Virus record (IMG/VR): IMGVR_UViG_3300042883_000874
Coordinates: 37,923 to 101,922 of that record
DNA length: 64,000 nucleotides
Reading direction: 5' to 3' (one strand)
Source: a virus
The notes under the pieces were generated by a model that worked only from the letters and a program-made list of their open reading frames with translations, made no database searches and was not told the origin of the DNA. The translations under genes were made by a program, and so were the position numbers. Below are positions 1-64,000 of the stretch, piece after piece (positions within the stretch are counted from its first letter, which is position 1; the number at the start of each line of letters is the position of its first letter).

Positions 1-1
1 A

Positions 2-883
2 TGGGATAAGATTATGGAAAAACTTACAGCTCCAGAAGAAGATAAAGTTATTCCTCCTGCTGCTGAAAAACCTAAAGATGCAGATAGAAAACCTATTGAA
101 CAACATACTCCTATTCCTTATGGTGAAAATCAAAATGCTCCTTGGTGGTTACAAGATACTATTAAAACATTTGGTGCTGTAGGAGATATGGCTAGACTTA
201 AAAAGTATTTACCTTGGCAAGCTACTCCTCAAGTAAGATTACCAGAAGCAACATTCTATGATCCTACTAGAGAACTTGCTGCTAATACTGAAATGGCTAA
301 CATGGCTATGCAAAATTCTGCAGCATTTACTAATCCACAACAACAAGCTGCTGCTAATACAGTTGCTCAAGGTCAAATGGCTAAAGCTGCTGCTGATACA
401 ATGGGAAAATATAATAACTTAAATGTTACTTTAGCTAATCAATTATCTCAACAAAATACAGGTATTATGAATCAAGCTTCTCAAAATAAAGCTAATCTTG
501 ATACACAATTATATGATAAATATACAGTAGCTAATCAACAGTTTGATAATTCTAAAGCACAAGCTAGACAAAATATAAGACAATCTTATATGGATGCTAT
601 TACTAATAGAGCTAATACAGCTAACTTAAATACATTGTATCCTCAGTATGCTGTTGATCCTTCTGGTGGAGGTTTTGCTTATTTTAGACCAGATCCTAAT
701 AAGATAGATCCTGCAACTAGATATGATCATTATGATGCTTTACAGAAAAAAGCACAACAGTATTCTAGTGATCCTACAATACAAGCTAAGTATTTTAATA
801 TTATGTTAAATAAAGGAATTGATCCTAATGATCCTAATGATGAACTTAATCTGATTAATAATAGAGGTTATAGAAACAGTTAA
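2..883 (+). CDS. Virion/cargo-type protein, Q/A/N-rich helical; probably truncated at window start
   Basis: Frame is open from base 2, upstream of ATG 14; Cys-free, Q/A/N-rich, lies ahead of the giant virion genes. Confidence 0.55.
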   Translation, partial: WDKIMEKLTAPEEDKVIPPAAEKPKDADRKPIEQHTPIPYGENQNAPWWLQDTIKTFGAVGDMARLKKYLPWQATPQVRLPEATFYDPTRELAANTEMANMAMQNSAAFTNPQQQAAANTVAQGQMAKAAADTMGKYNNLNVTLANQLSQQNTGIMNQASQNKANLDTQLYDKYTVANQQFDNSKAQARQNIRQSYMDAITNRANTANLNTLYPQYAVDPSGGGFAYFRPDPNKIDPATRYDHYDALQKKAQQYSSDPTIQAKYFNIMLNKGIDPNDPNDELNLINNRGYRNS

Positions 884-962
884 TAAAGCAAATAAACTTT
901 AAAAGTGTATTACAACCTCAAATAAATTTTGTATATTTAAAACATAATATTTTACTAAAACT

Positions 963-1454
963 ATGAAACAATTAATGCTTACAAAAGGATACTATGCTCT
1001 AGTTGATGATGATGATTATTATTGGGTTAGTCAATTTAATTGGTGTGCTATAGAACTTGATGGTCAAGTATATGCTAGAAGAAGTAAAAAGAAAGGTATA
1101 TTAAAAAGTAATGAACCTTATGAAATTTATTTACATAGAGTAGTAACTAGATGCACAGATAAAACAAAAGTAATTGATCATATAGATCATAATGGGTTAA
1201 ACTGTCAAAAAGATAATCTTAGAATATGTACACCCAGTGAAAATAAAAGAAATGTTAGAGCTTATACAACTAGTTCATCTGTATTTTTAGGTGTAAGTTT
1301 TGATAAAATAAGAAATAAATGGGTAGCTCAATTAACACATAATAATAATAAAATTTTAAGTAAAAGATTTACTACAGAAAAAGAAGCAGCTACTGCTTAT
1401 GATGCTGCAGCTAAAGTATATCACGGAGAATTTGCAAATTTAAATTTTAAATAA
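963..1454 (+). CDS. HNH-AP2 homing endonuclease
   Basis: LHR...IDHIDHNGLNCQKDNLR HNH motif, then AP2 domain (GVSFDKIRNKWVAQL...EAATAYDAAAKVYHGEFANLNF). Confidence 0.9.
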   Translation: MKQLMLTKGYYALVDDDDYYWVSQFNWCAIELDGQVYARRSKKKGILKSNEPYEIYLHRVVTRCTDKTKVIDHIDHNGLNCQKDNLRICTPSENKRNVRAYTTSSSVFLGVSFDKIRNKWVAQLTHNNNKILSKRFTTEKEAATAYDAAAKVYHGEFANLNFK

Positions 1455-1455
1455 T

Positions 1456-4233: not shown

Positions 4234-4234
4234 G

Positions 4235-7200
4235 ATGGCAGAAGAATTAGCTAGTCAAGGACAAGAACAAGAACAACTTGCTCCTCAAGAAAGTGAATTA
4301 ACTAATGGGGCTCCTGCTTTACAAGCTTTAAATAATTCTGCTGTTGATAGAATAAGACAAATTGAAGAATCTTTAAATTTACCAGCTAGACCAAATAGTA
4401 TTGATGCTTATAAAAATATAGCAGGTAATCCTATAACAGGATCTAATCCTTCAGCAAAAAATTCAAATAGCTCTGTTGACTTTTTTACAAGCATGGATAA
4501 AGCTTTATCAGCTATGCCTAAAAAAGAAAGTGATATCTATGGAGCAATGAGACCATTTAGTTATAATGGTGATACTGATGGAGCTAACTTTGAAAGATAC
4601 CATTCTTCTGGTGATTTGTATAATAAAATTGGCTTTTCTCCTTATAGAGATAATGAATCTTTATATAATGATAAGATGACATTTGGTGATGAGTTTGTAA
4701 GAGCTGCATCACAATGGGATAACTTAGTAGGTACAGGTTTTAGATCCGGAATTAGGTCTTGGAGTACTTTATTTACTGATCCTTTAGCTCCAGATTTAGA
4801 AGGTGCTAGAGAAATGGAAAGAATAATGGCTGTTGGTTCATCTACAAAAGGTGGTATTGGTGGTTTTTTTATAAATACTTTTTTAAACTCAGGATATACT
4901 ATTGGTATTGGTGCAGATTTTTTAGCTGAAGAATTAGCTTTAATGGGATTAACTGCTGCTACTGGTGGACTAATGGGAGCAACTGGTGCTTCTATGATGG
5001 TAGGTAAAGGCTTAAATGCTGTTGAAAATGTTTTTCAAGGAGCTAAAACTGCTTTTGCTGGGTCAAAAAGAATGGAGAATCTCCGTGCTATAAACAGTGT
5101 TCCTGAAATGAAAAGTCTTTGGACTAAGATGAGTCAAGGAACTAAAAGTGTTGTAAGAGAAACTGCTAATATTTTAAATCCTTTAGACCAAACTGTTGAT
5201 GCATTAAGAGCTACTGACTATGCAAGTAACTATGCTAAGATGACCAAAACTTTTGGAGCTTTTGCTGATGACATGTTGATGATGAAAGGAGCTGTTTCTG
5301 AAGCTAAGCTTGAAGGTGGGATGGCTAAGATTAATATTACAGAAGATCTTGTTGCAAAATATAGATCTGAAAATGGTAAAGATCCTGATGGAGCAGAGAT
5401 GCTAAAGATAGAAAAAATTGCTAATGATAAAGCTTATCAAGTTGCTTTTTGGAACTTACCTGCAATTACTACTAGTAATAAGTTAATGTATGCTACAATG
5501 CTTGCTCCTTTAAGAAGTGTTATGGGAAGAGAAGGTGCTGTTAAATTAGTAGATGATTACTTGTTTAATGGTAAAACATTCTCTGCTGTAGGTGAAGGAT
5601 TCTTATCTAAAGGTAAAGCTGCATTACAATCTTTTACAAAACCTAAATTTTATGGTCAGTTTGGTATGAATTATCTTAAAGCAAACTTTGCTGAAGGTAT
5701 TCAAGAAAACTTACAAGAAGCTATATCTAGTGGAGCTGCTAAACATGCAATGCAATTATATACAGATCCTATTAAAGCAGGTTATGAAGGTTATATGCCT
5801 CATTTTATGCAAGGTCTTGGTGAACAGTTTTCTGCACAAGGAGCTGAAACATTTGCTGGTGGTTTTGCTATGGGTATGTTTGCTCAACCTGTAATGGCTG
5901 CACCTTCTGTTGCTATAAGTAAGCTAGTTAAAGCTTGGGGTACTGAAAATTATGCTGCTGCTGAAAAATTAAACAAAGAATTTAAAGCTAAAAATGCACA
6001 ATATTTAAATGACTTTTATGATAAAGCATTAATTACATTAGCTCCTGATATAGACAATTCTATAACAACAGGTAGATTAGCTGATGATATGTATACAGCT
6101 GCTAGAAATGGTAAAAAGAAAGAAGCTATTGATGCTATAGAAAACATTAAAGATAATAAAATACTAGTAGCCCTTCAAACTGGTAAATTAGATATTATGA
6201 TTAACAAAGTTGCTCAATATAAAAACTTAAGTAGAGCTGAAGTTGTTGAAGCATTTGGTAAATATGGTATTAAAGAACAAGATGTAGACAGTGCTCTAGG
6301 TAAAATAGATGGTATTGTTGCAAGAGCTAATCAACTTAAAAAAGACTATGAAGATGTTGCCGAAAAATATCCTAATCCATTTAATCCTAATAAATTTATA
6401 TTGGGAACTTCTGAAAGAAAAGCTGCAGAAATTGCTTACAAAGCTTGGGAAACTGCTAAGTATAACTTAACATTTGCTAAAGCTACTTATACTTCTCACA
6501 GTAAAAGAGTAGCTGATGTAGCTAATATTTTCTCAAATATTTCTAATGACCTAGCTAAAGCTGATGCTCAAAACTTAATGACATTGCTTAACCCTGCAAC
6601 AACAAAAGGTGAGATCTTAGCACTAAGGCAAGAGCTTTCTGTTCTAGATGATAATGTTCCTGAACAAAAAAAGCTTAAAGCAGAAAAAACTAAACAGCTA
6701 GAAACTATAAATAATTTCTATGAAGCTGTTAAAGCTGTTAAAGAAGCAAAAACTCCTGAAGAAAAAGAAGCTAAAGATGAAATAGCTAAGAAAGCTTTTA
6801 TGGAGCATGTTAAATTCTTAGCTAAAAAGAATGATCATATTGTATTTAATGAAGATATAGAAAAAGCTTATAGTGTAGTTAAAGATCATATGAGTCTTAA
6901 AGATGATATGAAAGGTCTTGCTGAAAGTATTAATGTATTAATGGCTCCTCAAAACTTTTTTAAATTACACACTAGATTAAATGATGCTTATAGTGAAATT
7001 CTTAATAATAAAGAAGGTATTATTGAAGAAAATCAAAAGTTAATTAATAGATTAAACAGTATCAATGGTATATTAAATTTAGTTACTGTAGACTCAGGTT
7101 TAAATATCCCTAATGAATTAATAGAAAAATATGTTGAAGCTTTAGATAATGATATAGAAATGCCAGTAGCTACATACTTTATGGATGCTCAAGGTAATAA

Positions 7201-9706
7201 AGTAACTGCAGGTCCTCAATTTGATATTGCTTTAAAATTATTCAGCAACTTTACAGCTATTGCTGCTAAAGAAAAAGAAGATGAGCTTAAAAATAGACCA
7301 GTAAAAACATTACAAAGTACTATTAATGACATAATAGCTAACAAAGATTTTATTAAACTATCTGAAGATGGTACACATTATGTAAATACTAAAACTGGTA
7401 AAAAGTATGAGAGAGTTACTAACTACATTGCTGATGAAAAATCTAAAAATGATTTTAAAGATGGTATTGAAAAAGGTGAAGATATAGAAGATTACAAACA
7501 AAGATTAATTGGATTAAACTATAAAGGAAAACCTTTAACAAAAAAGCTTACAACAGCTTCTTCTCAGATTATTGGTACAAAAATAGATGTTCTAGTAAGA
7601 GATTTCTTTAATGGAGAACTTAAAGATTTATCAACATATGATGTATCTTCTTTAGAAGAGGTTCAAGCCTTTGTAAAAGAGTTACAACAAATTAAAGATA
7701 AAATGGATGCTAGAGGTGAAAAAGTTCTAGCAAATGATATTTTATTATATGATGATAACTTAGGTGTTGCTGGTACTGTAGATTTACTTACCTATACTGA
7801 GAGTGGTGATATCCGTATATATGATATGAAATCCATGAGAGGTAATCAGTTTACTAATGTTTATTTTAGTGGTATAAATGAAGGAAAAACAGTATATGAT
7901 AATATTTTTGAAGAAGGTAAAGATTCTAATAAAGTAAAACATCAAAAACAATTATCATTATATAGAATTTTATTAAATAATACTCACAACTTAAGAGCAA
8001 AAACTCTTGCTGTAATGCCTATTGAAGTAATATATCAACCAGGTGATGTTGTAACTAGTGAATTAAATCTATTACCTGGAGTAAGAGTAACTCCTTTAGA
8101 TCAAATTAAAGATGCTAGATTACTTCCTTTAAGAGATCAAGGTGAAAAAATAATTTCTTCATTAAGTCCTACAAGAAAAGAAGCACCAAAGACTGAAGAA
8201 GAAGCTAAAGAACAAGCTATTGAAGCTGAGACTAAAAGATTGTTAATGCAACCTAGAGAGAGTCTTACTCCTGCTGAAGAAAAAGCTTTAAGATTTGGAT
8301 TGCCGGGCTCTTCTACTTTACAGACTAGAAAAGAATTTATTGAAAAAAGAATAGAGTTACTAGAGAAAAAAGCTGAAGCTTTAGGTTTAGATGCTATTGA
8401 GATTAATGATACTCTTGCTTACTTAGATGGTATATTAGATACAAGTACTGAAAGTATTCAAAACAATCTTAAAAATATAGATGATCAGATTAAAAGTTTA
8501 AATAATATTATTAAGTCTAAAAGCTCTAAGAAAACTGCAAAAGGTGTTAAAGTTCAAGAGAAGATAGCTGAACTTAAAGCTGCCCGTACAGCAGAGTTTC
8601 AGTTGTTAAATGCTATTACAGATAGAGTAAAAGAACTTGAAGAAGATTTATCTGATGTTGAAGCTGTACAACAAGACTTACAAAAACAAGCTCAATACTA
8701 TTCTTCATTGATTAGTGACCCTACTCTTACTACTTATACAAGAGATGAGTTAATTGCTAGAAGAGATAAGATAAACTCTAAGATAAATACTATAGGTAAA
8801 TTACTTATAGCTGTTAGAAAAGCTATTGCTGATTCAATAAGATATATTAAAGAACATGTTAGTTTGTTATTTCAAACTGATAAAAATCTTAAGACTTTTA
8901 TATCAGATAATGAGTATGAAAATTTTCAATATCCTACAATAAAAAATAAGATTGAGAGTCTTCAAAATGAAGTATTAAATAACATAAATTCAGCTGAGTT
9001 TCTTGAAGTAGTAAAAACTAAAGAGGAAGAAAGGCAAGCTCAATTACTAGCTGCTTTATTAAAATATCAAGATCAAGTAAGATACTTAAGTGAACTAATT
9101 GATAACTATAAAGAAAACAATATAGGAAATAAGTTTACTACTACTACAATGAATCTTAATGCTAAAGAAGTTGTTGCTAGTAAACAAAAAGAATATCCTG
9201 TTACTATCAGTAGAAAGAATGCTAGAATTCAATCAAGAATTAAAGAAGCTAAACTTGCAGCTAGAGATGTTGCTGAAGTTGAGACAGTTACAGTTCCAAC
9301 AGGAGAAGTAGTTGTTTCAAAAGTAGGGCCAACAAAAGTAACTAGTCAACAGTTAAATGAGAATTTAAATTTAAAAAGTTTAAAGGTTGCTCAAACTAAT
9401 AAATTTGAAGTTATTTATGATAATATTCAGTATAAAATTGAGAAAGTTGGAACAAATTCAGTAACTTTGAAAAGTGCACTTGGTACAAAGGTAACAATAA
9501 ATGAAGATGATCTAGTTAGAGATCTTAGAATTGTACAACCAGGTATTGAGGAATCAACTGTAGAGGAAAATGAAATTATTAAAGCTAATGAAAAACTTAT
9601 TTCTGAAGAGCCTAAAGAGTTTAAAAAAACCAAAGCTGCAGATAAAGAAGATTATGCAAAAAGATTAAAAACAGGAAAAACAAATCTTATAGAAAACCTT
9701 TGTTAA
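4235..9706 (+). CDS. Giant virion protein (1823 aa) with G/A-rich hydrophobic segments, coiled coils and a PD-(D/E)xK nuclease domain
   Basis: GVAGTVDLL...IYDMKS...QLSLY nuclease motifs at ~7.4-8.1 kb; G/A-rich putative membrane helices in the N-terminal third. Confidence 0.75.
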   Translation: MAEELASQGQEQEQLAPQESELTNGAPALQALNNSAVDRIRQIEESLNLPARPNSIDAYKNIAGNPITGSNPSAKNSNSSVDFFTSMDKALSAMPKKESDIYGAMRPFSYNGDTDGANFERYHSSGDLYNKIGFSPYRDNESLYNDKMTFGDEFVRAASQWDNLVGTGFRSGIRSWSTLFTDPLAPDLEGAREMERIMAVGSSTKGGIGGFFINTFLNSGYTIGIGADFLAEELALMGLTAATGGLMGATGASMMVGKGLNAVENVFQGAKTAFAGSKRMENLRAINSVPEMKSLWTKMSQGTKSVVRETANILNPLDQTVDALRATDYASNYAKMTKTFGAFADDMLMMKGAVSEAKLEGGMAKINITEDLVAKYRSENGKDPDGAEMLKIEKIANDKAYQVAFWNLPAITTSNKLMYATMLAPLRSVMGREGAVKLVDDYLFNGKTFSAVGEGFLSKGKAALQSFTKPKFYGQFGMNYLKANFAEGIQENLQEAISSGAAKHAMQLYTDPIKAGYEGYMPHFMQGLGEQFSAQGAETFAGGFAMGMFAQPVMAAPSVAISKLVKAWGTENYAAAEKLNKEFKAKNAQYLNDFYDKALITLAPDIDNSITTGRLADDMYTAARNGKKKEAIDAIENIKDNKILVALQTGKLDIMINKVAQYKNLSRAEVVEAFGKYGIKEQDVDSALGKIDGIVARANQLKKDYEDVAEKYPNPFNPNKFILGTSERKAAEIAYKAWETAKYNLTFAKATYTSHSKRVADVANIFSNISNDLAKADAQNLMTLLNPATTKGEILALRQELSVLDDNVPEQKKLKAEKTKQLETINNFYEAVKAVKEAKTPEEKEAKDEIAKKAFMEHVKFLAKKNDHIVFNEDIEKAYSVVKDHMSLKDDMKGLAESINVLMAPQNFFKLHTRLNDAYSEILNNKEGIIEENQKLINRLNSINGILNLVTVDSGLNIPNELIEKYVEALDNDIEMPVATYFMDAQGNKVTAGPQFDIALKLFSNFTAIAAKEKEDELKNRPVKTLQSTINDIIANKDFIKLSEDGTHYVNTKTGKKYERVTNYIADEKSKNDFKDGIEKGEDIEDYKQRLIGLNYKGKPLTKKLTTASSQIIGTKIDVLVRDFFNGELKDLSTYDVSSLEEVQAFVKELQQIKDKMDARGEKVLANDILLYDDNLGVAGTVDLLTYTESGDIRIYDMKSMRGNQFTNVYFSGINEGKTVYDNIFEEGKDSNKVKHQKQLSLYRILLNNTHNLRAKTLAVMPIEVIYQPGDVVTSELNLLPGVRVTPLDQIKDARLLPLRDQGEKIISSLSPTRKEAPKTEEEAKEQAIEAETKRLLMQPRESLTPAEEKALRFGLPGSSTLQTRKEFIEKRIELLEKKAEALGLDAIEINDTLAYLDGILDTSTESIQNNLKNIDDQIKSLNNIIKSKSSKKTAKGVKVQEKIAELKAARTAEFQLLNAITDRVKELEEDLSDVEAVQQDLQKQAQYYSSLISDPTLTTYTRDELIARRDKINSKINTIGKLLIAVRKAIADSIRYIKEHVSLLFQTDKNLKTFISDNEYENFQYPTIKNKIESLQNEVLNNINSAEFLEVVKTKEEERQAQLLAALLKYQDQVRYLSELIDNYKENNIGNKFTTTTMNLNAKEVVASKQKEYPVTISRKNARIQSRIKEAKLAARDVAEVETVTVPTGEVVVSKVGPTKVTSQQLNENLNLKSLKVAQTNKFEVIYDNIQYKIEKVGTNSVTLKSALGTKVTINEDDLVRDLRIVQPGIEESTVEENEIIKANEKLISEEPKEFKKTKAADKEDYAKRLKTGKTNLIENLC

Positions 9707-28834: not shown

Positions 28835-30741
28835 TAGTCAAATAAATTTAATTGTGTTATTTTGGGTAATATATTATCAATTTCCTTATATATTTTATCT
28901 ATATAATAAGAGTCATCAATGTTATAATCTTCCCAAGGTTTTTCTTCATAAGTATTAAAGAGTTCTTGCATCCACTTCCCAGCTTCAACTTGTATCTCTC
29001 TTTTATCATGTTTGTTTACTTTATAGATCTTACAGCCTCCTGTAGAGATATAATATCTTAAAGTTTTTTGTAAAGGTTTTTTATGTATGCCTTCTTTGTC
29101 TACACAAATTTGTTGGAACTCCCAATCTCCTTTAATTTTTACACCAGAGCAATAGTCAAATATGTTTCTATTGTCTTGTAAAAATTGTTCAGGTAATTTG
29201 TTTTCAATAAAGAATGCATAGATTGCTTTAGGTATAATTAAGTTACTCTTGTTTTTATGAAGAGCAAGATTGTTAAACTCAAATCTACCTTTACATTTAG
29301 ATTTGCCAGCCATATTAACTGCAATGTAATTATTTACATCACCTATTACCATTTTGCTGTATTGATCATGCTCAAGTTGTAATTGAGTAATATCCTCCCA
29401 TTTTTTGCAAATTTCTAGATATATATCTTTATAACTTGCAGGGATTATCATCTCAAGACCATCTGTATTTTGCATTAATGGTTGACAGTCTGGTATAGCC
29501 TCAACTAACATTTCATATAGCATCATTAGAGATAGCTGACCATTGATTGTAATCCTCATTGTGAATTCAGGATCATATAGAAAACTGTTTGCATCATTAC
29601 TTAAGCCATAAGTTGAATTAAGAATAATCTTGTATACATAATTTTTAGGATCACTTTTAGGAAGCTTTTTTCTTTCCTCAAAAAACCACTCATATTTGCT
29701 ACAAAATATATCTCTATCTAGATGTGCCGGTGACCACTTATTCCTAATGGCCAGATTTGGATAAAAACTAGTTACATCAGATGACATTATAATCATATCA
29801 TCTTTTGCTTCATAAACTCCACTTCTTATACAACCATGAACTCCACCTAAGCCAAAGTCTGTCTTTACACCTTTATATTTAAAGCTGTATTTAAAGCCTC
29901 CTTTGGTGTCTCTTGCATTTATTATTAAATCATTGAAGTTATATAGTAAATCTTTAAAAGTGTCTGTAGTAAAGCTTGTGTAAGGCAGGATGATATCCTT
30001 TATCTTTATGTTATCTCTACTAGTTCTTAAATTTCTAAGATTATACTTACTTACATTCATTTCTTCACTTAAGAATGTCAAGAATAACTCTTTAGAGATT
30101 CTTGGTTCTGATGCACTAAACAAAGGAAGATTGTATTCTTGAGTTAAAGTTTTTCTAAGATTAATCTGTTCCTTGCTAAAGTTCATAATTTGCTTAGTAG
30201 ACTTAACATCATTTATACAATAGCTTATGATTGTATCAAGTTGTTCTTGTGTTGTGATACTTGTACTATGATGAATAGGCATATCTAATAGATTGTGCCA
30301 GTCCATAGAGTACTGTATCCATTTTAAGCTGGATCTTTTTGCTGGATTATCCCAATGGTTAAGCTTGAATACATCAATTTGTCTAATAGATAAGTCTTTC
30401 TCACTAAATTCTGAGAACTCTTTCATATTTTGTCTTTCAATGATATCTTGGGCTTTCTTATAGACCATACCAGCTATAGTTGGTCCATCTAGTTTTACTA
30501 ATGACTTATTATTTCTTACTATATACTCTGAAATTTGAGAGTCAAAAGCTAAGCCATTAAAGGATATGTGCCATTCTCCATTTACACTGTTGCTTACAAG
30601 AAAGTCAATAAGTTCTTTTATTTCATTTTTTAGATGACCTATAACAAAGATCTTTTGTTCTGTTCCTGTATAGTGTTCTGCTACTAAGGTAGTACAATCA
30701 ACTAGTGTTTCATAGTCAATTACCCAATGGTTTTTTGCCAT
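28834..30741 (-). CDS. polB: Family B DNA polymerase with 3'-5' exonuclease
   Basis: IDYET and SFNGLAFD exonuclease motifs; SSDVTSFYPN, KIILNSTYG, QNTDG. Confidence 0.95.
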   Translation of the reverse strand: MAKNHWVIDYETLVDCTTLVAEHYTGTEQKIFVIGHLKNEIKELIDFLVSNSVNGEWHISFNGLAFDSQISEYIVRNNKSLVKLDGPTIAGMVYKKAQDIIERQNMKEFSEFSEKDLSIRQIDVFKLNHWDNPAKRSSLKWIQYSMDWHNLLDMPIHHSTSITTQEQLDTIISYCINDVKSTKQIMNFSKEQINLRKTLTQEYNLPLFSASEPRISKELFLTFLSEEMNVSKYNLRNLRTSRDNIKIKDIILPYTSFTTDTFKDLLYNFNDLIINARDTKGGFKYSFKYKGVKTDFGLGGVHGCIRSGVYEAKDDMIIMSSDVTSFYPNLAIRNKWSPAHLDRDIFCSKYEWFFEERKKLPKSDPKNYVYKIILNSTYGLSNDANSFLYDPEFTMRITINGQLSLMMLYEMLVEAIPDCQPLMQNTDGLEMIIPASYKDIYLEICKKWEDITQLQLEHDQYSKMVIGDVNNYIAVNMAGKSKCKGRFEFNNLALHKNKSNLIIPKAIYAFFIENKLPEQFLQDNRNIFDYCSGVKIKGDWEFQQICVDKEGIHKKPLQKTLRYYISTGGCKIYKVNKHDKREIQVEAGKWMQELFNTYEEKPWEDYNIDDSYYIDKIYKEIDNILPKITQLNLFD

Positions 30742-34562: not shown

Positions 34563-35750
34563 TTACTTCATTGCCATTTTGACAACTTCTGCATTAAGCA
34601 TTAATTTCTGAAATTTAGCTTTATTGCTAGTGATTACTCTCCTTACAATGATGTATTTCAAGTCATTAGTAAATACTTCACCAGTACAAAACTTAGTTAA
34701 TCTTTCTGTAACTGCCTGGGTAATTGTGTTACCTTCTGCATAGTTACAAGTAAAGTTAATTAACCTTGTTACTAATACACTTGCAATATCAGCTCTATAA
34801 TCATTACCTACACCAATACAACTGTTTAATTCACCAATAATATAAGCTTCATTTTGGTGTAATAACATGTCTTTAGGAGTAACTAACTTATCTAATTTAT
34901 TATTAATAAATGTAGTAAAGAAAGTACTAAAAGTTGGATTAGTAGTAGCTTCACCTAATTGTTGAATCAATGGTAATTGATCTGCAAAATTATCAATAGA
35001 CATTAAAGAGTTAAAGAACATAGTTACAGTTCTTGCATTGATATCTTCAGCATCCATTAACTCCGGGTGTAATAATAAGAAGTTGATACATCTTGAATCA
35101 ATACCAGTTTTCTCTGCATATCTAGCCCATACATTAACATCAAACTTATAGTTTACATTAATTACACGAGTCTTTTGAGCACCATCCATTGCTGATACAG
35201 AATAGTTTCCATTATCAGGATTAGAAGTTAAGATGATCATAGATCCTACAGGTAAACACCAGTTATTATAACATTGAGTTTCTAATAAAGTCATAGTAGC
35301 TTGAATAAACTTTTCACTTGCTCTAGAATAATCATCTAATAATAAGATCATTGGTTGTTCTCTACCATTAATCCATTCTGGAGAAGCATGAGTCATTCTA
35401 ATTTTTCCTGATGGTTTAAGACCTGCAGTAATATATTGAGGAATTGCTCCTTCAACTACCCAGCGGTTAGTACCATCTTTAGCTATCATTTCATGTTCTT
35501 TACATGGATATCCTACTAGATCAGATACATCTTCTAACTCTGCTAAATTCTTTCTAACTAATTCCATTCCTAGTTCATTAGCTAATTGTAAAATAGTAGA
35601 AGTCTTACCACCACCAGCTTCACCTTCAATGTTTACTGCTTGTACAGCTAAACCTTTTTCAGATAATACTTTGTTATTGTTATAAATATAAGTTAAGAAT
35701 GATTTTAATTCTTCTGAGTTTAAGCTAATTTTATTACTTGTTGTTGACAT
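34563..35750 (-). CDS. MoxR-like AAA+ ATPase
   Basis: GEAGGGKT Walker A, LLLDDYSRA Walker B, LTSNP sensor 1, MDGAQKTR. Confidence 0.85.
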   Translation of the reverse strand: MSTTSNKISLNSEELKSFLTYIYNNNKVLSEKGLAVQAVNIEGEAGGGKTSTILQLANELGMELVRKNLAELEDVSDLVGYPCKEHEMIAKDGTNRWVVEGAIPQYITAGLKPSGKIRMTHASPEWINGREQPMILLLDDYSRASEKFIQATMTLLETQCYNNWCLPVGSMIILTSNPDNGNYSVSAMDGAQKTRVINVNYKFDVNVWARYAEKTGIDSRCINFLLLHPELMDAEDINARTVTMFFNSLMSIDNFADQLPLIQQLGEATTNPTFSTFFTTFINNKLDKLVTPKDMLLHQNEAYIIGELNSCIGVGNDYRADIASVLVTRLINFTCNYAEGNTITQAVTERLTKFCTGEVFTNDLKYIIVRRVITSNKAKFQKLMLNAEVVKMAMK

Positions 35751-38645: not shown

Positions 38646-39624
38646 TTAACTTTTCTTTTAATAAAGGGGTTAACTGGTCTTTAACTTTATGAATGCCATG
38701 ATCTCTTACAGAGTCAGATAAATCTTTTGACATATCAAGAATAACATATGGTATACCATACTTATCTTTATACTTCTTCATAGATTCCTTTCCTGCATTA
38801 TCATTGTCAAATAAAGTACAGATACCTTTATATTTATGCTTATATGCTGTGATAGCATGTTCTGGTATCAAAACATTTTCACTATCCGGGGCTATTGCCT
38901 CAGCATTTTTATATCCAAGTTTAGTAAAAGCCATTATATCTTTCAATGAACTACAGATAACTAGATATGGTAATTCCATAGTTAATTGGTCTGAGCCTTG
39001 AGTATAATCTTTTATCTTAATAAATTTATGATCCTTTGTATAGGGATGATAAATTTTATACAACAAACCATCTTTTCTAAAGTAACCATATATATTACTA
39101 CCTTTAATAGTAAGTTCCTTTATTTCACCTTCTTCTTCTTTTGAAAGTTTATATTCTGCTAGAGGCATTACATTATAAAACTCTAAAAGTTTAGAGCCTA
39201 TATGAAATTTACCCCAGAATTTACTATCTAGGTTAGTCCAGGTTCTTGTAGCAAAGTTTGTTACTTTGAATTTAGTTTGTCTTTTAAATTCTCTTATACT
39301 ATAATCTTCCTTATTAGTAAGAGTATAAGTATTGTAATCTTCAATTATTTTATAAGCAGTCTCTCCACGAGTACTTAAGCTAAACATCTGCTGTATTAGA
39401 TCTAAAGCATCTCCTGTTTTACCAGTAGAAAAGTCTTTATATCTATAAGTTGTGTTCTTTGAATAATATACATACATTGAAGGAGTTTTGTCATTAGGAT
39501 TAAATACTGATTTAATCTTTATGTCTTGTCCACTCAGCTTTTCTGTTAAGTTTAAATAATGTTCATAGACCCATTCTCTAGGAACCTCACTTATACTTGT
39601 AATCAATGATTTTATTCTTAACAT
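38638..39624 (-). CDS. DNA primase (TOPRIM)
   Basis: YKDFSTGKTGD, SSLKD, APDSE, LFDNDNAG, KDLSD. Confidence 0.85.
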   Translation of the reverse strand: MLRIKSLITSISEVPREWVYEHYLNLTEKLSGQDIKIKSVFNPNDKTPSMYVYYSKNTTYRYKDFSTGKTGDALDLIQQMFSLSTRGETAYKIIEDYNTYTLTNKEDYSIREFKRQTKFKVTNFATRTWTNLDSKFWGKFHIGSKLLEFYNVMPLAEYKLSKEEEGEIKELTIKGSNIYGYFRKDGLLYKIYHPYTKDHKFIKIKDYTQGSDQLTMELPYLVICSSLKDIMAFTKLGYKNAEAIAPDSENVLIPEHAITAYKHKYKGICTLFDNDNAGKESMKKYKDKYGIPYVILDMSKDLSDSVRDHGIHKVKDQLTPLLKEKLNG

Positions 39625-43320: not shown

Positions 43321-43729
43321 CTTCTATTTCTTTTAGTATTGTTAAGGTTGTTTCTTCTTTAATTTCAATAAAGTTTTTTATTTTACTTATACCATGTAAA
43401 ACATTTGAATGATTAAATCCAAAATATTTACTAATACCTACTAAAGTATAGCCCATATTGTGAAGATGATAAAACATAGCTTGTCTGTAACATATTAAAT
43501 CTCTATCTCTAACTCTTTGTTTTACTGTATAAACATCACCAAACTTCTTATACATTACAAAATTAACAATTTTCTCAACATCTTGTAGGGATAGAGGTCT
43601 GAGTTTGTTATTTCTATTTAAATAAAGCACTTTAGGTTGTGTTCCATACTTTGAATAAAAGTTATCACAAAAAATTTTTACATCTTCTTCTTGCTCTTTT
43701 TCAAGCTTTTTCATTTCATTTGTTACCAT
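43250..43729 (-). CDS. DnaA domain IV-like HTH protein
   Basis: R.RDLICYRQAMFY...TLVGISKYFGFNHSNVLHGISKI resembles the DnaA C-terminal signature. Confidence 0.75.
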   Translation of the reverse strand: MVTNEMKKLEKEQEEDVKIFCDNFYSKYGTQPKVLYLNRNNKLRPLSLQDVEKIVNFVMYKKFGDVYTVKQRVRDRDLICYRQAMFYHLHNMGYTLVGISKYFGFNHSNVLHGISKIKNFIEIKEETTLTILKEIEDGFKETDELVDIIQQHDRGETNS

Positions 43730-44439
43730 GTTATTTCTTGGTTAAATTGTTTTTTTGTAAGCATATTTACTTTATTAAATACATCATTACAGTCCCAAGA
43801 TAGTAATTCCTTGTAAGCTGCTGATGCTGGGTGACTTGTAAATATCTTCTCTGAATACTCCGGTACTGATTCTGCCCATTCTTGAGCTTTCTTACCCATA
43901 AATACATAGATTAAGTTAGGGTTATTAACACTAAGAAAATCAAATAAGAATGTTAAGAAAGGTCTCCAAAGTTCATAGTGAGTTCCTGTTTTATGAATTG
44001 TAGTTGTTAAAGCACAATTTAACATAAGTACTCCTTGATTAGACCATCTTGCCAAGTCAGCATCACCTGTATAAGTTTCATGATATACTGTTTCTTCTAA
44101 AGCTTTAAACATATATCTCAATGATGCTTCAGGTTTACCAATATTACTACATGAAAATGCTATACCATCCGCTACATATATTTGAGGATAAGGGTCTTGT
44201 CCTATTAGTACAACTTTTAATTTGTCTAATGGACATTCCTCAAATGCTCTAAACATCTGCTTTACTGGTGGTGTGAATCTTTTGTCGGCTCTTGCCTCTG
44301 CTAGTAATGTATTAAGAATCTTATCATATTCACTACTAAGAATAAAAGTTTTTAACTTATCTCCCCAGCCTGAATTCTTTAAGTTCTCATACAATTTTGT
44401 TTTTACTTCTTCTAAATTTACTGAATCTAGTGTGCTCAT
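43723..44439 (-). CDS. ung: Uracil-DNA glycosylase, family 1
   Basis: VVLIGQDPYP, ADGIAFS, WSNQGVLMLN, SHPAS. Confidence 0.95.
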   Translation of the reverse strand: MSTLDSVNLEEVKTKLYENLKNSGWGDKLKTFILSSEYDKILNTLLAEARADKRFTPPVKQMFRAFEECPLDKLKVVLIGQDPYPQIYVADGIAFSCSNIGKPEASLRYMFKALEETVYHETYTGDADLARWSNQGVLMLNCALTTTIHKTGTHYELWRPFLTFLFDFLSVNNPNLIYVFMGKKAQEWAESVPEYSEKIFTSHPASAAYKELLSWDCNDVFNKVNMLTKKQFNQEITW

Positions 44440-46399: not shown

Positions 46400-46651
46400 T
46401 TAAAATCTTTTAATTGTTACCTTATAAAATTTAATATTTGCTATTGGGCTTAAATCAACTTCAGTAGCTTCAATTAATTTATGAGGATAAGGTTGCTTTG
46501 TTAATGTTTTAAATGTAGTTTCATTAAGATTACTCTTGTAATCCCATGATCCATGCCACTTAATAGTTGTACCCCGGTTGATGGGAGTTTCTATTGTTCT
46601 TAGTTCTGAGTTTTGCATTAAGATATGCTCATCAAGTTTAGGTAAATCCAT
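46400..46651 (-). CDS. Hypothetical protein
   Basis: ORF. Confidence 0.5.
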   Translation of the reverse strand: MDLPKLDEHILMQNSELRTIETPINRGTTIKWHGSWDYKSNLNETTFKTLTKQPYPHKLIEATEVDLSPIANIKFYKVTIKRF

Positions 46652-50454: not shown

Positions 50455-50865
50455 TTAAGTTATTCTTTTTATACTGTAACCTTTTTCCATAGCAAATTCT
50501 CTATGATTTTCTACATACTCATGACAGTTATGGCATAAGGCTAACCAATTAGTCTCATCAAGTAGATCATTTCCAATCCTACCTTTCTTATGATGAACTT
50601 CAGTAGCCTGACCTTTACATACTCCTTGAATATTAGCTTGACACATAGGGAATTCTAATAAGAACAATACTCTCTTAGCAGAGTATAGTTTTTCTTCTTT
50701 AGATCTTTTCTGGGACCGGGGAGCAATAGGCTTTGCTTTAATTGTTGGTTTTTTCATGTCAACTCCAGTAGTTGAACACTTTTTGCAAAGTTTCTCACCA
50801 CCCCGGCTTGTCCAGATAAAAGATTCAAGATTGCATTTACTACAAATCTTTTTTTTCTGTATCAT
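50455..50865 (-). CDS. HNH-family Zn-finger nuclease; likely start 50865
   Basis: CSKC, CKKC; CQANI..C...EVHH...NWLALCHNCH. Confidence 0.75.
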   Translation of the reverse strand: MIQKKKICSKCNLESFIWTSRGGEKLCKKCSTTGVDMKKPTIKAKPIAPRSQKRSKEEKLYSAKRVLFLLEFPMCQANIQGVCKGQATEVHHKKGRIGNDLLDETNWLALCHNCHEYVENHREFAMEKGYSIKRIT

Positions 50866-53500: not shown

Positions 53501-53543
53501 ATCAGTCTTGTTTTTAGTTAATCCTCAATTCGCGAATTGCAAA

Positions 53544-54238: not shown

Positions 54239-54256
54239 AATATTTAGTTTAGTTTG

Positions 54257-54329
54257 TGATCCTGCCAAGATTTGAACTTGGAGCCTATACATTAGAAGTG
54301 TATTGCTCTTCCATTTGAGCTACAGGACC
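54257..54329 (-). tRNA. tRNA-Arg(UCU), CCA not encoded
   Basis: GGTCCTG/CAGGATC acceptor stem, TAGCTCAAATGGAAGAGC D-arm, ATACA-CTTCTAA-TGTAT anticodon arm, CCAAG-TTCAAAT-CTTGG T-arm. Confidence 0.92.
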
Positions 54330-57978: not shown

Positions 57979-57979
57979 A

Positions 57980-59223: not shown

Positions 59224-59264
59224 GTTTTTTTGTTAAATTGTTGATTACTAATAAGTTAAAGTTG

Positions 59265-59620
59265 CTTAGTAAAAAGGTTGAATAGTCTAAATCAAAAACT
59301 AAAATTAAGCCAAAGACCTCTCTCTGTGTTCAAAGTCAAAGATAAAAACTAAGTCTTGTTGTGTATCCTCACAGAGTTCTTCACTCTGCTTTTTTGTGAG
59401 GTGCTGCCAGTTTTTCCCATAGGGTAACCTGTCAAGCCATTGGTATCTTTTGTGAAAAGACCCTACAAAACTAGTATTTAAGTTTACAGAGAAAGCGGTT
59501 GGTGTACCATAAGGTACTTTTAGTATATTAATAAATAATATGATTTTTTTTAGAGTTTTTAGGAACCTTTTTACTAAGTTTAAAGAGTAAGAGAATCAGC
59601 TTAGGCCTATCTCTTACTCA
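59265..59620 (-). ncRNA. Candidate large structured RNA downstream of the coiled-coil gene
   Basis: Perfect 15-bp closing inverted repeat, nested stems, hexamer repeats. Confidence 0.6.
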
Positions 59621-59632
59621 CCTTCAATGTAG

Positions 59633-60553
59633 TTAGGATTCAGGATCCAAGTTCTTTAAGAAAAGATCTATGGTACCCTGAAAACGAGGATCAATGGAGA
59701 TCCTTAGTGCAGAAGCCTGCTGAATCTTGGTCTGTCTATCAGACTCAAAATTCCCAAAAGCTACAGTAGCAGCCTCACTATGAGTGCTCATTAAGTCAGA
59801 GTAATCCTGTCTCAACTTTTGGTTGATTAGATTAATCTCTGATGCCTTAACAGCATTCTCTTTAGAGATGCGAGCATTCTCCTCAGTAACCAAGTTCTTA
59901 ACCTTGGCCTTGAAGTAATTTACTCTCTGCTCATAGCTTCTGTGTAAAGCAGCTAACTTCTCATGGAAGCTCAATAGCTCCTCTGAGGTGTGGTGAGCTT
60001 CCACCTTCACAGGTGTTTTTATACCACTCTGGAGCTCAATGAAGTCTAAGACTTTCACATTAGGCAAGTCCTTTCTAAGAACATCCAAAGGACAATTCTT
60101 ATGTATAAACTGCCCTATATGAGAAGCATAGGCTTCTTGCTCCAAATACTCAGAGTACTCAGCTTTTGAGAGACTATCCCATCCCCAGTCTTCCCCTACC
60201 ATGTCTTGAATTACAAGAGTATGGTACTCAGGTTGCTCTGGGGCCACTAAGCTATTAATGAACCTTTCTTTCTTAAGGTCATTAATTAAGGCATCCTTAG
60301 CCTTGATGTTGCTCATCAAGAATGCCTGGGTTGCATGCAGTTGGCCTTTTTCTACCAACAGTTCTACTATATTAGTAGGAACCGGCTTACCTACTTGCAG
60401 CATGTAGGTTTCTCCATTGGTTTTGAAAACCTTTGAAGAGTTATTAATACCACTAATGGTATTACTAATCTCAGATGCTCTTTGATTACAAAGATTTGAG
60501 ATACTTGCTGCTTGTGATAAGCTTAAGCCTGTTTTGTCTAGATTATTTCTCAT
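59633..60553 (-). CDS. Coiled-coil protein (~306 aa; likely start MRNNLDKTGLSLSQA)
   Basis: Long helical ORF with GC-richer codon usage than its neighbours. Confidence 0.75.
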   Translation of the reverse strand: MRNNLDKTGLSLSQAASISNLCNQRASEISNTISGINNSSKVFKTNGETYMLQVGKPVPTNIVELLVEKGQLHATQAFLMSNIKAKDALINDLKKERFINSLVAPEQPEYHTLVIQDMVGEDWGWDSLSKAEYSEYLEQEAYASHIGQFIHKNCPLDVLRKDLPNVKVLDFIELQSGIKTPVKVEAHHTSEELLSFHEKLAALHRSYEQRVNYFKAKVKNLVTEENARISKENAVKASEINLINQKLRQDYSDLMSTHSEAATVAFGNFESDRQTKIQQASALRISIDPRFQGTIDLFLKNLDPES

Positions 60554-60633
60554 AATACTGTCTAAAGGGTTGACCAATACACCCAGAGGTTTTAGTTTTG
60601 TTGTTTGATTTGATTGTTGAATTGTTTGTTTTG

Positions 60634-60909
60634 TTAGATTAACCCATAGTTTTCAGGGTTATCTAACATATCCATGCCCATATGATAAGCAATATCATGG
60701 TCAACTTGGCTTATTGCTTCTTTCTGTAAAGCAATTAACTCTTCTCTTAATCTATTATTAAGTTTAAAGTCACCTATTGTCATGAATCCTTTTCTAAGGA
60801 CTGTACCTACAGGAGGTATATCAGCTACATATAGTTCTATTGTACTTTCTATACCTAAGCATTTAAGAGCTGTAATAGCTCTAACTGTTGCATCTTTAAA
60901 ATCTTCCAT
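60634..60909 (-). CDS. Hypothetical protein
   Basis: ORF. Confidence 0.55.
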   Translation of the reverse strand: MEDFKDATVRAITALKCLGIESTIELYVADIPPVGTVLRKGFMTIGDFKLNNRLREELIALQKEAISQVDHDIAYHMGMDMLDNPENYGLI

Positions 60910-61042
60910 GTCTGAGTTGGGGTTTAAGTTGTTGATTACTAATTGATTACATTCTTCAGGTAGACTAGTTCTAAACTAATCTACCACAGTTGAATGTTAC
61001 TGGTGGGTTCTTACGAATGAAGTATACCCACTAACCTTATGC

Positions 61043-61096
61043 ATTGCCTACACATATTTCTATGTGTTTCATCCCTTGAGGAATCATCAGGGCAAT
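61043..61096 (-). ncRNA. Type I hammerhead ribozyme
   Basis: AUUGCC-CUGAUGA-U(UCCU CAA GGGA)U-GAAA-CACAU(AGAAAU)AUGUG-UA^-GGCAAU. Confidence 0.8.
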
Positions 61097-61098
61097 TA

Positions 61099-61410
61099 TT
61101 ATTCATATCCTTGATTATCAGGGATATTTTCTCCATGAAAGTCATCATATTCTTTTAACTTTTCAGGAGATATAGTAGCTCTATGTTCTTTAATCTGTTT
61201 TTCTAATGAACAGATAAGAGCTCTTTGTTCATCTACCCACCATCTGTACTCAAGGTTCTCTTGATAAATATCAGATACATCTTCTATATCTTGTGAAGAT
61301 AACTGAGGTGGTCCTGTCATTATTAACTCTGATATAGCTGTGCTTAATTCAGAGTTTAATCCATCTAACCAAGTTAGTGGGTGTGATTCAGCTGTAATTT
61401 CTAGTTCCAT
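61099..61410 (-). CDS. Hypothetical protein
   Basis: ORF. Confidence 0.55.
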   Translation of the reverse strand: MELEITAESHPLTWLDGLNSELSTAISELIMTGPPQLSSQDIEDVSDIYQENLEYRWWVDEQRALICSLEKQIKEHRATISPEKLKEYDDFHGENIPDNQGYE

Positions 61411-61521
61411 TTTCTTTGAGTTGTTTTTTAGGGTTGGGTTAATTACTTAGATCCTATATTAGGCATAAAGATAGATTCATCATCTTGCCATATATATTCT
61501 TCATATTCTTCATCCATTGTT

Positions 61522-61719
61522 TTAAGATTTAAAGGGTTTAAATTGTTTATTTAGGAATTGATAGTACAATATCTTTGGTATGAAGTAGGCTGAGTTACCA
61601 AACTTATCAAAGTCTGCTAAGCTTGCATGTTCATCAAACCAAGGTTCATCCATAAGTTCCTGAGTTTCAGGCCATTGAACTAATACATATTCAAAATGTG
61701 TTGGGTCATCTACTTGCAT
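61522..61719 (-). CDS. Small phage protein
   Basis: YVLVQWPETQELMDEPWF...GNSAYFIP. Confidence 0.65.
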   Translation of the reverse strand: MQVDDPTHFEYVLVQWPETQELMDEPWFDEHASLADFDKFGNSAYFIPKILYYQFLNKQFKPFKS

Positions 61720-61744
61720 AGTTTATAAGATTAAAGGGTTAGTA

Positions 61745-61969
61745 TTATACAGGAACATAAATTATGTTATTATAATTCATTGTTAATCCTATAAATTGAA
61801 GTTCAGTACCATCTTTGTTGAATTGAAGACTAGTTAGGTAGTGACCTTTTCTTAGCATTTCTGTATTTGGGTATATATCTAAGTATAAAAAATTAATATC
61901 TCTATTGTGTTTGACTACAAGAAATCCAAATTCTTCATATCTATCTCTCATTTGATCTATTTTTGTCAT
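61745..61969 (-). CDS. Hypothetical protein
   Basis: ORF. Confidence 0.5.
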   Translation of the reverse strand: MTKIDQMRDRYEEFGFLVVKHNRDINFLYLDIYPNTEMLRKGHYLTSLQFNKDGTELQFIGLTMNYNNIIYVPV

Positions 61970-62343
61970 GGTTAATTGGGTTAATAGGTTAATAATTTTA
62001 AAGGCCTGGGTTACTCTCTCTTTCCTATAAGAGAAAACATTACTATAAGTAATAAGAGATATTATATGTATAGAGATATAATAAGAGAGTATATTACTAA
62101 GTTATATGTATTAAGATATAGTTTAACCTATCTTACTAGTACTTAGCTATATGACCCACCTAAAACAAATGAGCATAATTTAACTAAAAGCTAAATACTT
62201 TGAGTTATATGGATGGTTGATAGTATTAAACAGCCTCTAATCTATTATAATTCTATTTTTTTCCACAGCTATTACTATTCTTATCAATTTATAACTAGCT
62301 AATACACAGTGAGTTATATATTATTGGTCTACTTCTCTCACCG

Positions 62344-62751
62344 CTAGGATAAGAAGTTATTAGATATCTTAATACATCTATCTATAAACTCCTTATAGTT
62401 TGTGTTATGCTTCATGAAGTTACACAAAGTACAACATGATATCAAATTATCATGTACATAGCCTATTGTATTATCTATTCTGTCAATACCTATTCCTTTT
62501 ATAGGTTCATTACAGTAATGACAAGATGTATCCCAAAAGGTATTGAACTGCTCAATAGTTATATTAAAAGAATAACCTCTTCTTAAAGCTCCTCTCTTAT
62601 AAACATTGTATCTAGTCTTAGGTTGTTTATGATATTGATATTTAGTTTTACATGATTTCTGTACTATAACCCTTAAAGCTTTTTTACAAGATATACATCT
62701 TAAACTATTATTTGTTTCAGTAGGGTTACTACAATCTTTACATGTCTTCAT
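62344..62751 (-). CDS. HNH endonuclease
   Basis: CHYC...GIDRIDNTIGY..DNLISCCTLCNFMK; own TATATTTG at 62775-62782. Confidence 0.85.
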   Translation of the reverse strand: MKTCKDCSNPTETNNSLRCISCKKALRVIVQKSCKTKYQYHKQPKTRYNVYKRGALRRGYSFNITIEQFNTFWDTSCHYCNEPIKGIGIDRIDNTIGYVHDNLISCCTLCNFMKHNTNYKEFIDRCIKISNNFLS

Positions 62752-62981
62752 AATAAGTTATTTACTTGTTTCTACAAATATACAAAATATAATGGAGATA
62801 ACCTAATAAATGTGGAGACAAAGTTTCACACACACAATAGACCTGGACCAAATCCCCACAGCTTTACTACAAAATACACAAAGCCACAGTTACAGAGTAA
62901 GTAAAGACATAGACCTGAGACCACAACACAGGCTTAACTAATTAATATACAATCAGTTAAGTCTATGTATACAGTCTAAGT

Positions 62982-63018
62982 AAAAAAAAACAGTAGAGGT
63001 ATTACCCCCTACTGTTTT
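62982..63018 (-). terminator. Intrinsic terminator
   Basis: AAAACAGTAG..CTACTGTTTT hairpin with long U-run. Confidence 0.8.
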
Positions 63019-63029
63019 ATATGTCTTAT

Positions 63030-63338
63030 CTAAAATGCTTTAGATAAGTTAGGTGCAGACGTAGTTGCTACTACTGCACTCTTAGGTCCTAATGTAGATA
63101 CTACATTAGCTTTACCTTGCGGATGTATCATCCATGAAGGTTCACCTGTTTCAGGTGTAAACCAAGACACTGCTAAGTCTTCTGCTAACACAGTAACCTT
63201 ATCAGATAATCTGTAAGTTCTACCATTGGTATCCTTACCAAATAGTTTTCCTGTGTTCTCATTCAGGATGATGTCAAAGCTGATGTTTTCAGAGTTGATA
63301 ATTGACATGATGTTGCGAGTCTGTTCAAATGTTGCCAT
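63030..63338 (-). CDS. Hypothetical early protein
   Basis: ORF; TATATTTG at 63443-63450 upstream, terminator downstream. Confidence 0.65.
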   Translation of the reverse strand: MATFEQTRNIMSIINSENISFDIILNENTGKLFGKDTNGRTYRLSDKVTVLAEDLAVSWFTPETGEPSWMIHPQGKANVVSTLGPKSAVVATTSAPNLSKAF

Positions 63339-63497
63339 TGTGAGTTGTGAGTATATGGGTTATTCTGTACACATTTTGTGTAAAGGACATATATCAATCT
63401 AAAAAATGGGTTAAAAAAAGAAAGCAAGTCAAAAAAAGAAAGCAAATATACAGCAGTAGTCCATGTCCATGTCTATAAGAGAAAAACAAACAGTAGA

Positions 63498-63698
63498 TTA
63501 CTCTACTGTATTGTTCTCTGCTGCATTAAGCTGACCTTCCATGTATGATTGAAGATGGTCTCTTAATTCTGTTAAAGCCATTTCTTGTCCTATAGCATTA
63601 TAGTGCAAATAGTCTGTATCTATAGATAAGTGTTTTGCTTTATAATCTATTGATATGTCAATCATCTCAATGATTGCTAGTACTGTAGTTGTGTCCAT
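63498..63698 (-). CDS. Hypothetical protein
   Basis: ORF. Confidence 0.55.
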   Translation of the reverse strand: MDTTTVLAIIEMIDISIDYKAKHLSIDTDYLHYNAIGQEMALTELRDHLQSYMEGQLNAAENNTVE

Positions 63699-63708
63699 GT
63701 TTTAAGTT

Positions 63709-63864
63709 TTAGGGTTTAATTAAATTAAAATCTTCAATAGATAAACATCTATGTTCTCTCCATTGTGGAGAATCAAACCAACAATCTACACCTTTAGTTC
63801 CAATTTCATAGTTTACTAATACAGAAGCTGGTGAGATAAAATACTTTTCAATAATTGTTTCCAT
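63709..63864 (-). CDS. Small hypothetical protein, 51 aa (METIIEKYF...)
   Basis: Translated by hand. Confidence 0.5.
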   Translation of the reverse strand: METIIEKYFISPASVLVNYEIGTKGVDCWFDSPQWREHRCLSIEDFNLIKP

Positions 63865-64000
63865 GTTATATAATTTTAAAAGTTAATATCAACCATAACA
63901 ATGGGATAAAAAAAGAAAGCAAAAACATTTAGAAGAGAGTCCATATAGGACTCAATCTTCTACCAGCAGCATAGTACTACTATACCAATGTCCATAAAGG

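Follow-up and report, generated by a model that had tools for sequence, protein, structure and literature searches.

Strand-wise avoidance of the trinucleotide DCG in an uncultured crAss-like lake phage suggests continuing selection on its DNA

An uncultured crAss-like phage of lake origin has lost 96% of its CG dinucleotides, and the loss follows a simple rule. What the genome avoids is a strand-wise unit of three nucleotides, DCG (A, G or T followed by CG; complement CGH), counted on either strand, with T the most strongly avoided first base, then A and G, and C not avoided at all. We studied a stretch of 64,000 nucleotides, hereafter the window, which comprises bases 37,923-101,922 of a single 101,922-bp IMG/VR record, IMGVR_UViG_3300042883_000874 (G000:C1:37923-101922; estimated completeness 85%), and the whole record where indicated. 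From the comparisons reported here we conclude, with somewhat better than even confidence, that the phage is under continuing purifying selection on its DNA against DCG on either strand, exerted via a DNA-acting factor met during infection.

The window contains 59 CG dinucleotides, against 1,443 expected from its base composition (30.0% guanine plus cytosine, GC), which gives an observed/expected ratio (rho) of 0.041. The whole record holds 112 CG (rho 0.046) and 24 CCGG. The original prediction had put the number of CG in the window at 60-70, against roughly 1,400 expected, and this extreme depletion is borne out by the counts. It had also described GC dinucleotides and GATC as abundant, in agreement with 1,726 GC (rho 1.20) and 170 GATC (176.5 expected), and had placed about half of the surviving CGs in CCG or CGG, including several CCGG; the measured fraction is 36 of 59 (61%), with ten CCGG. 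Correction for codon usage, a check that had been proposed with the prediction, leaves the depletion standing: under a synonymous-codon shuffle that retains each gene's own, already CG-poor, codon usage, 664±19 CG are expected in coding sequence and 102 are observed, so that the under-representation of short words holds against a codon-aware expectation. Among 89 essentially random IMG/VR loci, a rough random background made up of chance matches from a viral contig scan with a 14-bp palindrome, the lowest rho(CG) was 0.18 and the median 0.92. The corresponding value in vertebrates is roughly 0.2, and the depletion in the phage is about five times deeper.

The depletion is not uniform over the words that contain CG. 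A model with one common factor for the ten NCGN classes fails (deviance 122.6, 9 degrees of freedom, p about 4e-22). A Poisson half-site model, in which the NCG of each strand has its own factor, lowers the deviance to 22.4, with factors of 0.10 for T, 0.17 for A, 0.21 for G and 0.58 for C. Relative to base composition, CCGG occurs 24 times where 57 are expected, CCGC/GCGG 17 times (114 expected) and CCGT/ACGG 18 times (257 expected), while TCGA and GCGC are absent (289 and 57 expected, respectively) and all other classes stand at about 0.03 of expectation. The same rule is visible in codon choice. The codon CCG before G is used in 15 of 421 cases (0.036), the same as the baseline of 0.028-0.044 given by GGG, GTG and CTG before G, compared with 0.002-0.008 for CCG before A, C or T and 0-0.005 for DCG codons before G. 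Under the synonymous shuffle, the 24 CCGG compare with 20.2±3.8 expected and are thus neutral. CCGG is not specially protected; it survives because, alone among the CG words, it has no DCG in it. Another idea, that CCGG persists at Pro-Gly as a way around the spelling CCWGG, was ruled out, as CCWGG occurs at 95 sites with a Markov observed/expected ratio (O/E) of 1.03. The extent of the purge and the surviving CCGG sites of the window are as follows.

1-64000: CG purge in every context that holds DCG/CGH, continuing through the rest of the 101.9-kb record.
4746-4749: surviving CCGG.
8303-8306: surviving CCGG, read as the Pro codon CCG followed by G.
29727-29730: surviving CCGG, read as CCG followed by G, in the DNA polymerase gene.
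35063-35066: surviving CCGG, read as CCG followed by G.
38886-38889: surviving CCGG, read as CCG followed by G, in the primase gene.
43860-43863: surviving CCGG, read as CCG followed by G, in the gene of the uracil-DNA glycosylase (UDG) superfamily.
46574-46577: surviving CCGG.
50716-50719: surviving CCGG, in a small gene that matches HNH weakly.
50803-50806: surviving CCGG, in the same small gene.
60382-60385: surviving CCGG, read as CCG followed by G.

The sequence around the surviving DCGs has two notable features only, the opposite half-site (G at +2) and a weak C at -2. The unit is therefore a trinucleotide on either strand and not a palindromic word of 4-6 bp, as is typical of Type II targets. 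Palindromic 4-mers without CG have O/E values of 0.78-1.6; since they are untouched, ordinary restriction-modification avoidance fits poorly as the source of the purge. As a separate observation, several hexamer palindromes without CG fall below Markov expectation in the whole record: CCATGG (0 versus 8.4), GGTACC (4 versus 16.3), GGATCC (6 versus 15.6) and GCTAGC (3 versus 9.9). They amount to restriction-type avoidance of the ordinary kind, superimposed on the DCG purge.

The depletion acts at the level of DNA, not of translation or mRNA. It is equal across the three codon phases, with an O/E of 0.03 for C and G meeting at codon boundaries, and NCG codons make up 0.05-1.4% of their families, compared with about 4% for the G-ending baseline. 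Non-coding DNA contains 142 GC dinucleotides and 10 CG, where 138 CG would be expected. Both strands are affected alike: the plus strand of the whole record has 16 TCG and 19 CGA, and on the sense strand TCG and CGA stand at 0.03 and 0.01 of expectation here, and at 0.04 and 0.02 in relatives that avoid TCG/CGA only (TCG-type, described below). Equal depletion on the sense strand rules out selection at the mRNA level. Arg is almost always encoded by AGA, as originally predicted (AGA 522, AGG 35 and CGN 28 in the window; AGA 865 and CGN 50 of 966 in the whole record), and this preference does go together with a phage tRNA that reads the codon.

54256-54329, minus strand: tRNA-Arg(UCU), reading AGA, the codon that stands in for CGN; the single such tRNA.

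The co-occurrence is thus real, but the tRNA or codon usage as the cause of the depletion is ruled out by the strand symmetry and by codon boundaries and non-coding DNA, which are equally purged. The tRNA gene itself contains no CG, and its T-loop carries TTCAA (GTTCAAATC), where many tRNAs have TTCGA; the RNA gene too therefore obeys the purge.

The whole record retains 88 CG outside CCGG, namely 46 in Arg CGN codons, 18 at codon boundaries, 14 in NCG codons and 10 in non-coding DNA. Arg CGN codons are prominent among them because two synonymous steps are needed to reach AGR. Along the record, significantly more CG is kept only in the gene of the major capsid protein, in a second structural gene and in two short open reading frames (ORFs). 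The two structural genes, which lie outside the window (L001:5559-7184 and L001:13444-15063), carry CG above the genome rate: CGN accounts for 7 of the 23 Arg codons of the major capsid gene, and the other gene retains nine CGs outside CCGG. Perhaps CGT is favoured by translational selection where expression is high. A perfect 14-bp palindrome, CAATTCGCGAATTG, lies in an intergenic gap at 53526-53539 and contains the sole CGCG of the window, which makes up two of nine non-coding CGs outside CCGG. It may be a protein-binding site retained despite the purge; the viral contig scan with this palindrome returned unrelated chance matches only.

Purges of the same kind, with other first-base spectra, recur in dozens of related phages. 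Over 80 loci around the polymerase gene, rho(CG) ranged from 0.03 to 0.67. Avoidance of DCG as in the studied phage is found in L003-L005, L025, L032, L033 and L039. Many relatives avoid TCG/CGA only: TCGA is absent where 50-70 are expected, TCGG and TCGC are at about 0 and TCGT at 0.06-0.2, and the remaining CG words stay at 0.4-1.0. Two relatives, L054 and L057, avoid GCG only (GCGC 0; GCGT, GCGG and GCGA at most 0.1), with TCG and ACG mildly low; CCGG is avoided additionally or solely in L012, L064, L067, L069 and L075, and a few relatives avoid almost nothing. When mapped on a polymerase tree from a quick search, the types are dispersed, with differences between sisters, as illustrated by a TCG O/E of 0.45 in L006 and 0.05 in L008, and by the difference between L055 and L059. 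The spectrum thus varies among related phages, as in restriction-site avoidance, and such lineage-specific spectra would be expected of an agent that, like restriction systems, differs in specificity from one host strain to another.

Comparison of close relatives, where sequence differences are still few, indicates how the words are lost. Relative to L003, 12,328 bases could be compared without gaps (97.2% identity, 348 differences); eight of nine CGs were shared and both unshared sites were CCGG. None of the 94 C/T differences preceded G, where 14 were expected. In pooled close pairs of the DCG type, C/T differences per site were 0/1,894 in TYG, 5/2,023 in AYG, 2/704 in GYG and 8/1,434 in CYG; the pooled value for DYG is 7/4,621, against about 0.015 overall. 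TCG-type pairs showed the deficit in TYG (4/2,986), with normal values for AYG, CYG and GYG (0.016-0.021), and in weak-avoidance pairs every YG context was normal (0.043-0.062). The words that disappear are also informative. In TCG-type relatives, the purge of Ser TCG codons extends to places where the change from C to T would turn Ser into Leu and the opposite strand contains no TCG, and that of ACG, GCG and CCG codons is confined to positions before A, where CGA would form. The words are therefore lost by routes other than that leading to the deamination product. Because there is a deficit and not an excess of exchanges between CG and TG, because the existing CGs are stable, and because the purge extends to places where C to T is non-synonymous, the pattern, as judged from these alignments, favours ongoing selection over methylation-driven decay.

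Such decay had been offered as the second alternative in the original prediction, and in its full form it holds that CpG is methylated by an enzyme of the host or the phage, that 5-methylcytosine then deaminates, and that CCG is spared by a flank preference or by repair, all as a neutral process. The mild over-representation of TG/CA in the whole record (rho 1.13, an excess of about 1,430 sites, with about 2,320 CG sites missing) is in its favour, and PMC11282364 cites work on bacterial methyltransferases specific for CG and on the under-representation of CpG in Mycoplasma penetrans. We nevertheless regard this explanation as very improbable. In addition to the scarcity of CG/TG differences and the non-synonymous purge of TCG and DCG codons, the persistence of eight of nine CGs across 2.8% divergence would require, as estimated from CG turnover relative to L003, that the rate of loss exceed that of gain about 1,000-fold. 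The most over-represented dinucleotide of the whole record is AG/CT (rho 1.27). Where a third-position C is missing before G, A takes its place, not T. No methyltransferase of the families PF00145 (C5), PF01555 (N4/N6) or PF02086 (Dam-type) was found among the phage proteins, and among the relatives, strong and weak avoiders alike, PF00145 was absent from 22, and PF01555 from 16 that are near-complete.

The first alternative of the original prediction, selection by a CG-directed agent, is supported and can be refined to selection against strand-wise DCG. As to the agent, which had been thought of as a host defence, we infer that it is host-encoded, a protein that would damage or block DNA at DCG. 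In this explanation, DCG would be the target word of a candidate DNA-acting factor met during infection, most plausibly a restriction-like enzyme of the host, such as a nuclease, a nickase or another DNA-damaging enzyme. The factor would read about three bases, N-C-G, on each strand, with a first-base preference that differs between host lineages. The phage, which lacks a DNA methyltransferase, would escape by lacking the word, and the resulting shift of Arg codons to AGA would be served by its own tRNA-Arg(UCU).

Several points weigh against this reading. We know of no enzyme that reads DCG or NCG. The half-site model, despite its improvement over the uniform model, leaves a residual deviance (p = 0.001), and GATC, AGCT, CATG and GGCC, all of them targets of Type II enzymes, are not avoided. 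At Arg CGT codons of TCG-type pairs, differences between CCG and TCG were found at 5 of 273 sites, and this toggling implies that selection, though strong, has exceptions. The pairwise statistics would look similar if mutations that create the word were very rare, or if an enzymatic hypermutator acted at DCG, and neutral versions of these ideas are opposed by the codon-route argument only. Finally, mimicry of host composition is excluded for the sampled Bacteroidota only.

As a rival explanation, the phage would take its composition or its mutational regime from an unsampled host that lacks DCG, or its own replication machinery would rarely make the word. Phage dinucleotide content generally tracks the CpG content of the host (PMC11282364), and a very low gain rate would also produce a pairwise deficit of word-creating changes. 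As a host proxy, we divided the count of WWWWCGWWWW by that of WWWWGCWWWW. The ratio is 0.010 in the phage (2 versus 191), and at least 0.23 in all of 401 evenly drawn Bacteroidota species, none of which is similarly depleted; 20-kb samples of those with the lowest ratios had rho values of 0.48-0.90 and at most ordinary avoidance of TCGA or CCGG. None of five checked bins of metagenome-assembled genomes (MAGs) that hold relatives comes near the phage either (0.11-0.34). Moreover, spectra diverge strongly between sister phages whose polymerases are nearly identical, and DCG arises by many mutational routes, all of which would need to be suppressed. We therefore consider this alternative unlikely. 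The MAG bins, into which crAss-like phage contigs of this group (L083-L093) have been placed, were rejected as a clue to the host. Their labels are scattered over Micavibrio, Rickettsiales, Clostridium, Campylobacteraceae, Pseudomonadales, Gammaproteobacteria and Chitinophagaceae, and neither their rpoB regions nor their word ratios agree with those contigs, which we take as mis-binning; among the rpoB regions of eight bins, most were unlike the phage contigs in composition and one 1-Mb bin was similar. The Bacteroidota promoter motif TTTG-N17-21-TANNTTTG was not informative as a host clue, with 7 occurrences against 4.15 expected (not significant).

The reader of DCG could also be encoded by the phage, for example as a nuclease that degrades host DNA, from which the phage protects itself by lacking the word. 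The dC-specific endonucleases of T4 and the short-word nickases of chlorella viruses provide analogies. The purge is specific to the phage and absent from the sampled hosts, and the phage has no methyltransferase for self-protection, as this explanation would predict. Within ±10 kb of the polymerase gene, however, no gene tracks the avoidance type once phylogeny is considered. The strongest gene-content association, a small ORF of 105-191 amino acids, was rejected since it occurs in strong and weak avoiders alike and follows the tree, and a PD-(D/E)XK nuclease is carried by all 80 relatives, irrespective of the words that they avoid. A phage whose enzyme changed specificity ahead of the purge of its genome would kill itself, and yet the spectra of sister phages differ. 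The chance that a phage enzyme is responsible appears low.

A special case of the host-encoded factor that we favour is a host cytosine deaminase or glycosylase that hits the C of DCG on exposed single strands, with lethal or highly deleterious effect. The rule does work strand by strand and does depend on the base preceding C, and both the studied phage and Cellulophaga phage phi14:2, its best cultured match, encode a protein of the UDG superfamily.

43723-44439, minus strand: UDG-superfamily gene (PF03167, E 5e-12), within the replication module, as in phi14:2.

TC in general, however, is not depleted (rho 0.97), a bacterial DNA deaminase that depends on a G following the C is not known to us, and UDG occurs commonly among Crassvirales, irrespective of avoidance type. 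This special case is thus improbable, and the UDG-superfamily gene is relevant only if the DCG-directed agent proves to be a deaminase. A two-step route, in which some hosts methylate NCG, the Type IV nucleases of other hosts cut the marked DNA and the phage rids itself of markable words, is in our view more doubtful still. Type IV enzymes that recognise 5-methylcytosine in specific flanks do exist, such as the MspJI family, PsuGI at BB5mCGD and McrBC (PMC12707154). The route requires two further components, and McrBC-type recognition of R-5mC is a misfit, given that TCG is the most avoided word.

The purge resembles restriction-site avoidance in several respects. Synonymous changes rid the whole genome of short words, the effect is found in the phage and not in the sampled hosts, spectra differ between related phages, and the phage lacks a protective methyltransferase. 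It differs in that the classical words are Type II palindromes of 4-6 bp, whereas here the unit is an asymmetric 3-nt word per strand, and in that the DCG words together remove almost all CG and leave the four palindromes named above untouched. We know of no enzyme that matches the DCG purge. The loss of CpG linked to methylation, as in vertebrates and, according to the work cited in PMC11282364, in M. penetrans with M.MpeI, shares with the phage a strong under-representation of CG and a mild excess of TG/CA; it differs in that the phage has no methyltransferase and no CG hypermutability, and in that CCGG is neutral. The depletion of protospacer-adjacent motifs (PAMs) in phages whose hosts bear CRISPR is likewise a strand-symmetric loss of a 2-3-nt word read by host immunity. 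Its reported effects are modest, we know of no NCG-type PAM, and we judge the depletion seen here (O/E 0.02-0.2 per word) to be too deep for PAM avoidance. Our search of the literature yielded general treatments of restriction-site avoidance, PAM avoidance (PMC4246573, PMC12174588) and bacterial CpG bias, and no account of DCG or TCG avoidance, or of near-total CG avoidance, in crAss-like phages. The DCG purge belongs with motif avoidance as an anti-defence strategy; the 3-nt, strand-wise, CG-centred word and the reader that it implies are undescribed.

The assignment of the phage to the crAss-like group is based on its gene content. Its gene repertoire and order are those of Crassvirales, with structural genes, giant virion proteins and a polymerase/primase/helicase module. 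Terminase, portal and major capsid protein genes were detected by PHROG matches. Four giant ORFs are present, the longest of 3,673 amino acids and another of 1,823, and a minus-strand replication module encodes DNA polymerase, primase, a DnaB-like helicase, a superfamily 2 helicase, a deoxynucleoside monophosphate kinase, a PD-(D/E)XK nuclease and the UDG-superfamily protein. Megablast against cultured phages gave no match. The best cultured match, phi14:2 (Crassvirales, Steigviridae), shares 34.5% polymerase identity, and uncultured relatives in IMG/VR number in the hundreds (493 confirmed matches). With its genome of 100.4 kb, GC content of 28.8% (first 50 kb), polymerase, primase, DnaB helicase, UDG and virion RNA polymerase, phi14:2 is similar to the studied phage. 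It differs in its rho(CG) of 0.49, with all four NCG words at 0.39-0.55, and in avoiding CCGG only (0 versus 21 expected), which is the opposite of the pattern described here. phi14:2 also carries a cluster (L120:22025-27669) of genes for gamma-glutamyl cyclotransferase, ATP-grasp, COOH-NH2 ligase, aminotransferase and amidoligase proteins; these families had no match among 40 scanned proteins of the record, most of whose genes lie outside that scan.

Motif avoidance is the footprint that a defence system leaves in a phage genome. The footprint described here is unusually deep, follows a clean rule, is accompanied by measurable ongoing selection, and fits no described restriction, CRISPR or modification-dependent system. 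Since the purge recurs across dozens of relatives, the selecting agent is probably common in freshwater bacteria. The rule provides a precise specification for its search, namely an activity on DCG and not on CCGG, with a TCG-only version in other hosts. A further consequence is that cytosine methylation need not lie behind extreme CpG depletion in a virus, a point that matters for host prediction from k-mers and for CpG statistics of viromes. As a broader and tentative proposal, which we hold to be possible though rather less than evenly likely, lake and marine Bacteroidota, and possibly other bacteria, may possess a widespread, undescribed DNA-targeting immunity that reads no more than about three bases, N-C-G, on a single strand at a time and whose first base diversifies between strains, and crAss-like phages without methyltransferases may have erased the corresponding words, which in this lineage amounts to nearly all CG. 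If true, this NCG-reading immunity would be the equivalent, in bacteria, of antiviral sensing directed at CpG.

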